Positions 6 to 5,832 of a stretch of 5,832 bases of DNA are shown here, piece by piece (positions within the stretch are counted from its first letter, which is position 1; each line of letters begins with the position of its first letter). The stretch comes from a virus (Duplodnaviria > Heunggongvirae > Uroviricota > Caudoviricetes). The notes beneath the pieces were generated by a model, which saw only the letters and a program-made list of their open reading frames with translations, ran no database searches and was not told where the DNA came from. A program made the translations under genes and the position numbers. The stretch lies in the IMG/VR virus record IMGVR_UViG_2675903654_000001, positions 1-5,832 of that record. One strand, given 5' to 3'.

Positions 6-662
6 TTATCGCTCGCCACGGGAATATCTACGGCAGCAAGCCAGTAATGGGTTAAGTGATAACAGGTGTCTGGAAATATAGGGGCAAATCCACTCCCTGA
101 TGCAGTTGTATGTCTTTAGTTTCAGTCGTTCTCTTGTAACTACTATTTTCGGTGCTCTTGTTGGTGTTACTGGATTTTGAGATATACGTCCTTCAACAAT
201 GGCCTCGCGGAACATATCAGATAACACAGAACGCATTGATCCTGCCATCGTGTTTTTCCCTCCTTCAATCCACAAATCAAGAAACTCGGCAATATGGCGA
301 GTGGTTATTTCTGTCAGTAAAACCCCTCCTAATTTTTCTTTTATTGTCTCCAGTTGATTTACCCGAATTTTATAAGTATTTCTGGACACTTTTCTCCTTA
401 TAAGAATCGTTTTGTAACGTTCAATCCAGTCTGCCATAGTAAATGAGTCGAACCCTTTTAGTTTTTCAATTAAGGCAGCAGGAGAGTAGTTTTTGTATAT
501 ATAATGATTTGCTTCAATTGCCTGCGCTACTGCATCTCTTCTTGAAATTTTACCTAGTGTAAATTCTTCTTTCGTCAGAGGGTTGCGCCAGTAATATGCT
601 TTGTCCCTCCTTCGATATGTTAAGTTTTTAGGCAAATTGGGATCGTATTTTTTCCGCTGCAT
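6..662 (-). CDS. intR: Phage integrase, lambda Int family, N-terminal fragment only (arm-binding and core-binding regions; premature stop, catalytic domain absent); probable truncated allele or pseudogene
   Basis: Minus-strand ORF, ATG at 662-660, TAA at 8-6, 218 codons. SD GGAGAAG lies 7 nt upstream of the ATG, inside the xis 3' end. Residues 1 to about 185 align with the N-terminal part of lambda Int as recalled from memory (LPxNL, YYxRxPxTxKEFxLG, AIxAN, WxxRYxxIL, ITTxxIA, EGK, RSxLSDxFREAIxEG, TRAxK). No tyrosine-recombinase catalytic region follows before the stop, and the other two minus frames at 1-120 show no integrase-like sequence. Symbol is by synteny with Rac. Confidence 0.8.
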   Translation of the reverse strand: MQRKKYDPNLPKNLTYRRRDKAYYWRNPLTKEEFTLGKISRRDAVAQAIEANHYIYKNYSPAALIEKLKGFDSFTMADWIERYKTILIRRKVSRNTYKIRVNQLETIKEKLGGVLLTEITTRHIAEFLDLWIEGGKNTMAGSMRSVLSDMFREAIVEGRISQNPVTPTRAPKIVVTRERLKLKTYNCIREWICPYISRHLLSLNPLLACCRRYSRGER

Positions 663-909
663 GTTTTAACTTCTCCAGTAACGGACTGTCTCTCCCTTGT
701 CGCCCATTAGGCTGATGGTGTGTTATATCGGTATCAACCTTATTTGGGTTGATATAGAAAGCTTCCGGAACCACCCTGTAACTCCTCCCGTGTAGTTCAG
801 GTGCAGGATAAATGTTTCCATTCCTTGCCCATCGTCTCAGCGTTGATATTGATGGTGGGTTATCCGGATATCTGAGTTTTCCCCACGTTTTGAGTGTCAC
901 AAGATTCAT
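628..909 (-). CDS. xisR: Excisionase (Xis/AlpA-like DNA-binding protein)
   Basis: Minus-strand ORF directly upstream of int, overlapping the int start by 35 nt as in lambda xis-int. Sequence MNLVTLKTWGKLRYPDNPPSISTLRRWARNGNIYPAPELHGRSY resembles excisionases. Start placed at ATG 909 because SD AGAGG is 7 nt upstream; the ORF-track ATG at 915 is only 1 nt from that SD. The length (93 aa) is longer than I expect for this family, so the 3' extent is uncertain. Confidence 0.7.
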   Translation of the reverse strand: MNLVTLKTWGKLRYPDNPPSISTLRRWARNGNIYPAPELHGRSYRVVPEAFYINPNKVDTDITHHQPNGRQGRDSPLLEKLKHAAEKIRSQFA

Positions 910-931
910 TGCCATACCTCTTACGATATGA

Positions 932-960: not shown

Positions 961-1015
961 GTGTGGTTGATTTTTAATAATCAGCTATGAAGTTATAATT
1001 TGTATATAATGCAAC

Positions 1016-1204
1016 TCACGAGGACAGAAGTTTCTCGCAATTAAAATTTATCAGCTTTACTTTCTGCTCTCTGGACACGCCTGCTTCTTTTTTCCCTGAG
1101 AGCATTTTTTCGCATTCTGATTTCGTTAATTTAGATTTTGAATATCTTGTCCAGTTAGTAGGAGTGCCACCTTCTTTTTCAATAGTGGCAGTTATTTTAT
1201 ACAT
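1016..1204 (-). CDS. ydaC: Small prophage protein of unknown function (YdaC-like)
   Basis: Minus-strand ORF between xis and ralR; stop TGA at 1018-1016. Start chosen at ATG 1204 (MYKITATIEKEGG...) because a strong SD GGAGGTG sits 5 nt upstream. This ATG overlaps the ralR stop (GTTCATGTATAA), suggesting translational coupling. In-frame alternatives at 1216 and 1276 lack an SD. Identity is by position and memory of Rac gene order; exact length uncertain. Confidence 0.55.
   Translation of the reverse strand: MYKITATIEKEGGTPTNWTRYSKSKLTKSECEKMLSGKKEAGVSREQKVKLINFNCEKLLSS
1017..1200 (+). ncRNA. Candidate cis-antisense small RNA opposite ydaC and the ralR 3' end (possibly the RalA antitoxin sRNA); boundaries approximate
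   Basis: Plus-strand consensus -10 hexamers TATAAT at 994-999 and 1005-1010 (weak -35) in the xis-ydaC gap. A weak terminator-like structure lies downstream: 6-bp stem TGCCAC/GTGGCA (1165-1170 / 1185-1190), 14-nt loop, then GTTATTTTAT (1191-1200). The implied RNA is about 180 nt. A roughly 179-nt RalA antisense antitoxin next to ralR in Rac is known, but I do not reliably recall which end of ralR it overlaps. Confidence 0.2.
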
Positions 1205-1403
1205 GAACACCTCCATTATTATTTCCAGTAGTTCGTTTATTCCATCTTTCGAGTGCTTCTTTTTCACTTCCACCATAGCCAGTTCGGGATTCGCATTCGT
1301 TGCATTTTGCCCGGTAATACCCTGAAATTGCTTTCACCGTAACAGATGGACAACCACAAAACGGACATGGTTTAACATCGTCATATCTCATAATTTTTGT
1401 CAT
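1197..1403 (-). CDS. ralR: Restriction-alleviation protein Lar/RalR (also described as the DNase toxin of the RalR/RalA type I toxin-antitoxin pair); Cys4 zinc-ribbon
   Basis: Minus-strand ORF; the protein ...MRYDDVKPCPFCGCPSVTVKAISGYYRAKCNECESRTGYGGSEKEALERWNKRTTGNNNGGVHV matches Rac RalR/Lar as I recall it, with CPFC and CNEC pairs. Stop TAA at 1199-1197. Start ambiguous: ATG 1403 (MTKIM..., weak GAGA 8 nt upstream) or ATG 1391 (MRYDD..., gives the 64 aa I recall for K-12 but has no SD). Confidence 0.85.
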   Translation of the reverse strand: MTKIMRYDDVKPCPFCGCPSVTVKAISGYYRAKCNECESRTGYGGSEKEALERWNKRTTGNNNGGVHV

Positions 1404-4904: not shown

Positions 4905-4973
4905 TGTTTTTAACCTCAACTCAGATTAAAATTACTGCGAGTGATGAATAAATGTCCCAGGTTCTTCACTCAG

Positions 4974-5004
4974 GCCTGCACAGTGTGCAGGCTTTCTTTT
5001 TTTT
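4974..5004 (+). terminator. Rho-independent terminator-like hairpin plus T-run, oriented for plus-strand (antisense) transcription, in the racC-recE intergenic region
   Basis: GCCTGCAC(a g t)GTGCAGGC is a perfect 8-bp GC-rich stem at 4974-4981 / 4985-4992, followed by TTTCTTTTTTTT (4993-5004). On the minus (sense) strand the hairpin is preceded by an A-run and not followed by a U-run, so it would terminate only plus-strand transcripts. Confidence 0.4.
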
Positions 5005-5522: not shown

Positions 5523-5743
5523 TACCATGACTCCGCCTTTACAGGTAAACCATCACGACCGAGGAAGACTCTAATCATGCAGTCAGAAATGCATGTTTTT
5601 GTAGTCAGGCTACGAATATAAAGTTTTCGCTTTTTAATATTGTTTGCCGAGGCGATATATGTCCGACCTTCATGAAGAACATAATCGCCAGGGGTCACAC
5701 ACTGACGTGGTATTTCATCAGTTCCGAAGTGATGAGCAATCAT
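5522..5743 (-). CDS. kilR: KilR, prophage-encoded cell-division (FtsZ) inhibitor
   Basis: Minus-strand [76 protein letters not shown], 73 aa, matching Rac KilR as recalled. SD GGAGA is 5 nt upstream of ATG 5743; the ORF-track ATG at 5755 has no SD. Stop TAA at 5524-5522. Confidence 0.85.
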
Positions 5744-5832
5744 AATTATCTCCATTTTTACAAATGAATTTTGTCGATGCGGTGCCTGGTGCCTCCAGGT
5801 GACGTTAACCAGTTAACAATTAACGCCGGATA

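Follow-up and report, generated by a model that had tools for sequence, protein, structure and literature searches.

The window, which is the whole 5,832-base stretch of DNA that was analyzed, comes from a Rac-type lambdoid prophage, of which it forms the left arm. Its long genes all lie on the minus strand, and Pfam matches or alignment with the annotated K-12 locus identify them as a truncated integrase, an excisionase, ydaC/rcbA, ralR, recT, recE, racC, ydaE and kilR. The prophage is not that of K-12. From position 966 to the right it shares 95.6% identity with K-12 Rac; the int/xis module on the other side is of a different type. The closest complete genome is that of strain PK8241, with 99.7% identity across 900-1500. 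Positions 1-92 are the terminal inverted-repeat end of an IS2 element (ending ...GGGGCAAATCCA), which is inserted in a lambda-type integrase gene (93-662) and shortens it to approximately 190 codons. Since the integrase is truncated, excision of the prophage on its own is probably impossible. The junction between IS2 and the integrase gene was found at high identity in none of 5,426 complete E. coli genomes.

The excisionase ORF (628-915, minus strand) is separated from ydaC/rcbA by a spacer at 916-1015, which holds two TATAAT hexamers. The ydaC/rcbA gene (1016-1204, minus strand) has 62 codons for a DUF1187 protein (Pfam E = 6e-38), is annotated by PGAP and is preceded by a GGAGG-N5-ATG ribosome-binding site. 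The adjoining ralR gene (1197-1391, minus strand) is an ORF for a 64-residue endodeoxyribonuclease toxin of the Lar family, which was identified by Pfam (Lar_restr_allev, E = 1e-14) and by the RefSeq annotation of a 99.7% identical locus. The toxin ORF next to the RNA gene discussed below is intact, and 97% of its residues (62 of 64) are identical to those of K-12-type RalR. A GC-rich minus-strand hairpin, GGCGGTG-N5-CACCGCC, separates the stop of recT from the start of ralR at 1421-1441, and a short way upstream of it TTAACC-18-GATAAT at 1460-1489 is the sole minus-strand promoter-like site called in the region. These two elements may represent the ralR promoter and leader structure.

Several other elements were observed toward the right of the window. 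The racC-recE spacer, where all genes are on the minus strand, contains a strong terminator-like element on the plus strand at 4972-5002. It has a 10-bp stem and a 3-nt loop followed by UCUUUUUUUU (-16 kcal/mol, z = -4.3), and the hairpin is retained in K-12 with a compensatory A-U to G-C change. A weak Rfam match to OmrA-B (22.5 bits, E = 0.69) reflects this hairpin only. The Rfam family STnc100 gave a 5'-truncated match in the leader upstream of kilR (5738-5832, minus strand), which at 21.4 bits (E = 0.17) falls below the gathering score of 47; a different sRNA, KilS, is annotated in K-12 just past the end of the window.

When the window was searched with every Rfam family, a single significant match was obtained, to RF02694 (RalA, "RalR antitoxin"), on the plus strand at 1020-1198. 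The score was 219.2 bits against a gathering score of 170 (E = 3.4e-53), and the match covers model positions 1-179 of 179. In RefSeq, K-12 ralA (b4714) is annotated at NC_000913.3 1413556..1413734 on the plus strand, and it aligns to window 1020-1198 without gaps and with 8 substitutions in 179 nt (95.5% identity). The geometry is also that of K-12, in that the gene is convergent with ralR, lies antisense to ydaC/rcbA and shares 2 nt with the ralR stop codon. The 5' end of K-12 RalA was placed by primer extension at a G 62 nt upstream of a 16-nt repeat, and the 3' end was predicted from a terminator with a 5-bp stem, a 14-nt loop and 4 U, for a total of 179 nt (Guo et al. 2014, PMC4041452); a review also describes the 3' end as predicted (PMC4147584). 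A +1 at window 1020 puts T63, G64, G81 and G83, which were changed in the T63C, G64C, G81C and G83A mutants (PMC4041452), on the right bases. Judged by homology, window 1020-1198 is very probably ralA, the gene for the 179-nt Hfq-dependent sRNA that serves as type I antitoxin of RalR, in a Rac-type prophage of a non-K-12 E. coli. As such it is the orthologue of an annotated, Rfam-curated sRNA gene and is already known. Among 5426 complete E. coli genomes, 1922 carry the same module with this gene.

The first-pass annotation of this DNA had proposed a possible RalA sRNA opposite ydaC/ralR, and both the full-length RF02694 match and the alignment to K-12 ralA agree with that proposal. The transcript that it implied, 1017-1200, lies within 3 nt of the annotated 1020-1198 at either end, and the length of about 180 nt that it gave fits the 179 nt of the K-12 annotation. 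Its comparison of choice was the annotated K-12 ralA sequence, which aligns at 1020-1198, so ralA maps here. It had also allowed that RalA could instead overlap the 5' end of ralR at 1390-1450. This location was rejected: there is no Rfam match there, K-12 ralA sits at the other end of ralR, and the pairing target is instead inside the ralR coding region at 1254-1269.

The two TATAAT hexamers were described correctly as plus-strand sequences in a gap among minus-strand genes, and both are exact matches, hexamer 1 at 994-999 and hexamer 2 at 1005-1010. TATAAT occurs three times in the window against an expected 2.5 occurrences, and as bare motifs the hexamers and the hairpin near the end of ralA are no better than chance. 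The significance of the feature comes from homology, in the form of the full-length Rfam match, rather than from motif statistics. The original caution that the -35 was weak and the hairpin marginal was well placed, as promoter and terminator scans call neither. The sigma-70 scan did not call a plus-strand promoter near the hexamers because the -35 is poor (best match 2-3 of 6 positions). A correctly spaced TG is absent at the probable ralA -10, and TTGATT at 967-972 was rejected as a -35 since its spacing of 21 or 32 nt is too long; sigma-70 promoters have 16-18 nt between the two hexamers.

The hexamers were compared in two sets: 22 loci that were taken from complete genomes, from phages and from GTDB genomes, and 81 IMG/VR sequences (80 loci plus the window). 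The expectation that both would be conserved across Rac prophages held for hexamer 2 and failed for hexamer 1. Hexamer 2 reads either TATAAT or TACAAT in all 22 loci and in all 81 IMG/VR sequences (33 plus 48), and its T1, A2 and T6 are invariant across both sets (approximately 100 loci), though it lies in a non-coding spacer. Hexamer 1 reads TATAAT in no more than 4 of the 22 loci and 3 of the 81 IMG/VR sequences; otherwise it is TTTAAT, TCTAAT or TCTCAT. Hexamer 1 was rejected as a conserved promoter because most loci lack the key A at position 2. Since hexamer 2 is kept in all loci and hexamer 1 is not, hexamer 2 (TACAAT in K-12) is the conserved and probable ralA -10. Hexamer 1, from these comparisons, is probably not the ralA -10 and would be at most a lineage-specific second promoter. 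The double consensus is peculiar to this lineage and may give stronger or tandem initiation. Hexamer 2 ends 10 nt before the +1 mapped in K-12 (PMC4041452). The start is given here as 1017-1020, as a canonical start from hexamer 2 would be near 1017 and the reported +1 corresponds to 1020. The distance of about 180 nt to the hairpin given previously is right for the length of the transcript (1017/1020 to 1198) and too long for the gap between hexamers and hairpin, which is 155-171 nt.

The short hairpin at 1165-1190 and the T-rich tract after it are present as first reported. The predicted intrinsic terminator of RalA (1165-1198, plus strand) has a 6-bp stem in which UGCCAC (1165-1170) pairs with GUGGCA (1185-1190), a 14-nt loop and a tail, GUUAUUUU, at 1191-1198 that contains 4 U; the same element was predicted in K-12 (PMC4041452). 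The hairpin and tail fold with -9.8 kcal/mol (z = -2.1), and 7 of 200 shuffles fold as well. A consensus terminator scan of the window did not call this hairpin because its loop of 14 nt exceeds 8 nt and its U-tract is short. The stem is broken by G1187A in O157:H7-type loci. For example, the locus of E. coli O157:H7 F6321 has the G to A change in the terminator stem as well as a change of the first base of the ralR target from U-A to U-G, and the annotation gives its ralR as a pseudogene that contains an internal stop. The fold of RalA as a whole is not unusually stable (z = -1.3). Double-sided change was seen in 0 of 48 pairs, and most of the natural variation breaks pairs. In the consensus fold 95.8% of cells are paired, with a score that is not above that of shuffles in a family too shallow to judge. 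The 5' stem-loop that has been proposed to stabilize RalA folds in K-12 (-5.5 kcal/mol), and in the window U7A and U36C lose two pairs and the stem does not form.

The 16 nt of complementarity to ralR that had been cited as reported is found here between RalA nt 63-78 and ralR codons 41-46, with one pair fewer than in K-12. The pairing region of RalA (UGCUUCUUUUUUCCCU; 1082-1097, plus strand) fits the published T63C and G64C mutants (PMC4041452). Its direct DNA repeat in ralR, TGCTTCTTTTTCACTT, is at 1254-1269, and the ralR mRNA is consequently complementary to RalA at this site (minus strand, mRNA 5'-AAGUGAAAAAGAAGCA-3', codons 41-46, G-SEKEA). The duplex consists of 11 contiguous Watson-Crick pairs followed by G-U, a mismatch, C-G, a second mismatch and U-A, in that order. 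The pair that is missing relative to K-12 is an A-U pair, lost because position 1094 is C rather than A (RalA A75C). A perfect run of 11 nt was reached by 15 of 1000 dinucleotide shuffles, and with G-U pairs allowed the run is not above chance (469 of 1000). These values come from an analysis of ungapped runs, as RNAduplex of full-length RalA against the ralR mRNA (-69.4 kcal/mol against a shuffle mean of -68.9) is uninformative because the whole molecules zip together.

The ralR target at 1254-1269 is invariant or pairing-compatible in all loci sampled. Both copies of the repeat encode Lys-Glu-Ala with the same codons, one in YdaC and one in RalR. Three kinds of change in the repeats were seen: in locus L023 both sides carry the same T-to-A change, O157-type loci change U-A to U-G, and locus L101 has a change in RalA alone. 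Natural covariation between the 16-nt repeats was rejected as anecdotal, with all of the sites at synonymous third positions. In addition, two IMG/VR viral contigs (L060 and L070) carry an 8-nt deletion equivalent to 1082-1089, which takes out the first half of the RalA pairing region and would shift the reading frame of ydaC; ralR is intact in both.

Several of these results could be taken to mean that there is no dedicated sRNA gene at all, so that the hexamers and hairpin would be incidental in an AT-rich spacer and antisense strand and any plus-strand RNA would be pervasive antisense noise. The motif counts are at chance and the promoter and terminator scans silent, the fold is without covariation support, hexamer 1 lacks conservation, O157:H7-type loci have a broken terminator stem and two loci have a deletion in the pairing region. 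Set against this, every locus keeps a valid -10 at hexamer 2 despite its position in non-coding DNA, the gene is curated by both RefSeq and Rfam, and in K-12 there is primer extension, qRT-PCR and genetic evidence for the RNA (PMC4041452). We therefore regard the absence of an sRNA gene as highly improbable.

With 1020-1198 read as ralA, the mechanism described in K-12 is the best-supported one for the window because all of its sequence prerequisites are present. By homology, transcription would start at approximately 1017-1020 from the -10 TATAAT at 1005-1010, with a poor -35, and the RNA would end at the weak hairpin and U-tract at 1165-1198. The product would be an AU-rich RNA (37% GC) of approximately 179 nt. 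From what has been shown in K-12, RalA should then bind Hfq, its nt 63-78 should pair with codons 41-46 of the ralR mRNA, and the amount of RalR protein, though not of ralR mRNA, should be lowered, so that the DNase toxin is neutralized as in type I toxin-antitoxin pairs. In K-12, RalA supplied in trans from pBAD-ralA with an early stop codon abolishes RalR toxicity, a mutation in either 16-nt repeat kills the effect and matched mutations in ralR restore it, Hfq is required and RalA is bound by Hfq in EMSA (PMC4041452). RalR protein falls in K-12 and its mRNA does not (PMC4147584). The functional evidence in K-12 comes from one laboratory and from overexpression plasmids (PMC4041452). A literature search combining RalA with RIL-seq found nothing.

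RalA is also antisense to ydaC/rcbA along nearly its full length, as it spans ydaC codons 3-62 and is fully complementary to them. Of the 29 variable sites in the RalA region, 19 fall in ydaC codon position 3, and the conservation of the RalA sequence is thus explainable by coding constraint on ydaC. A ydaC ORF is kept beside ralR homologues in Citrobacter braakii and in a soil MAG, with approximately 60% amino-acid identity. By these comparative measures, namely the DUF1187 match, the ribosome-binding site, the codon-position-3 variation and the Citrobacter ORF, ydaC/rcbA behaves like a real protein gene. The 2014 study states that ydaC encodes no protein (PMC4041452), and the comparative data are at odds with that statement.

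The antisense arrangement raises the question of whether RalA acts mainly in cis, by forming an extended 179-nt duplex with the 3' part of the ralR-ydaC mRNA, with the 16-nt pairing in trans being secondary. As ralR and ydaC overlap and are probably co-transcribed, RalA would then control either the translation of ydaC/rcbA or the stability of the whole transcript. Support for a cis role comes from several directions. First, the geometry is suitable, since RalA covers ydaC codons 3-62 and has a 2-nt overlap with the ralR stop codon, and an interaction of overlapping 3' ends has been raised in a review (PMC4147584). Secondly, ydaC looks like a real gene (DUF1187 E = 6e-38, a ribosome-binding site that is strong, codon position 3 holding 19 of the 29 variable sites, and approximately 60% amino-acid identity in Citrobacter). 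Third, the 16-nt complementarity is absent in the distant ralR-ydaC loci, where the best runs are 7-8 nt. However, K-12 RalA expressed from a second plasmid neutralized RalR made from an mRNA without ydaC, and matched compensatory mutations in both 16-nt repeats restored activity (PMC4041452); ralR mRNA levels were also reported to be insensitive to RalA (PMC4147584). The published trans-complementation argues against the cis role as the sole mechanism, and the geometry and an apparently coding ydaC are compatible with it. We consider a mainly cis-acting RalA unlikely. A combined function is a tentative suggestion that we hold to be rather unlikely: ydaC/rcbA would be genuinely translated and RalA would have two roles, acting in trans as the antitoxin against ralR and in cis as an antisense regulator of rcbA. 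If this were true, ralR-rcbA-ralA would be a three-component module, and RalA, the RcbA protein or both would account for the "double-strand-break reduction" phenotype that has been reported for rcbA.

The distant loci also bear on how far the trans antitoxin extends. The Citrobacter braakii locus scores 35 bits and the soil-MAG locus 29 bits against the Rfam RalA model, and we read this similarity as probably reflecting the conservation of YdaC coding sequence. Neither locus has a TATAAT-like promoter element, and in them a downstream ORF that overlaps takes the place of the promoter spacer. Complementarity to ralR in these loci reaches 7-8 nt at best, which is the chance level. Conservation of RalA outside E. 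coli was rejected on the basis of these 35- and 29-bit matches without a promoter or extended ralR pairing, and for the same reasons RalA function looks confined to the E. coli/Shigella Rac lineage.

The identification of ralA in this prophage matters little beyond correct annotation. It does show that motif reading without tools, together with the earlier literature, placed a curated sRNA gene to within 3 nt. Natural ralA alleles vary in the strength of the -10, the integrity of the 5' stem and seed pairing, and they are ready-made test variants of the published mechanism. Lastly, the view of ydaC/rcbA as non-coding is contradicted by the comparative data.

Compared with K-12 RalA (b4714, RF02694) of Rac, the window RalA has the same locus, strand, length (179 nt) and neighbors at 95.5% identity, with the same 11-nt perfect pairing core and the same position of the terminator hairpin. 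It differs from K-12 by 8 substitutions and in the following respects. First, the window hexamers are TATAAT and TATAAT whereas those of K-12 are TTTAAT and TACAAT. Secondly, A75C (1094) costs the duplex one A-U pair. Third, the 5' stem-loop has two pairs broken, by U7A and U36C. Lastly, the closing pair of the terminator is U-A rather than the U-G of K-12, which is one better pair. The surrounding prophage also differs from K-12 Rac, as its int/xis module is of another type and its integrase is interrupted by IS2.

Among other type I systems, RalA resembles IstR-1/TisB, OhsC/ShoB and OrzO/ZorO in its short (16-21 nt) imperfect pairing and block of translation; those systems are divergent or trans-encoded, and pairing is by an adjacent, non-overlapping part of the sRNA (PMC4041452). 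Unlike them, RalA has a target in the coding region rather than in the 5' UTR, needs Hfq and neutralizes a soluble DNase, whereas the toxins of the IstR-1/TisB group are small membrane peptides (PMC4147584). RalA also resembles RatA/TxpA and SR4/BsrG of Bacillus subtilis, in which the genes are convergent and the antitoxin RNA reaches or overlaps the toxin gene's 3' end. However, in RatA/TxpA and SR4/BsrG a long 3' overlap is the site of interaction and promotes degradation, whereas RalA overlaps ralR by 2 nt only and its long complementarity is to the downstream ydaC.
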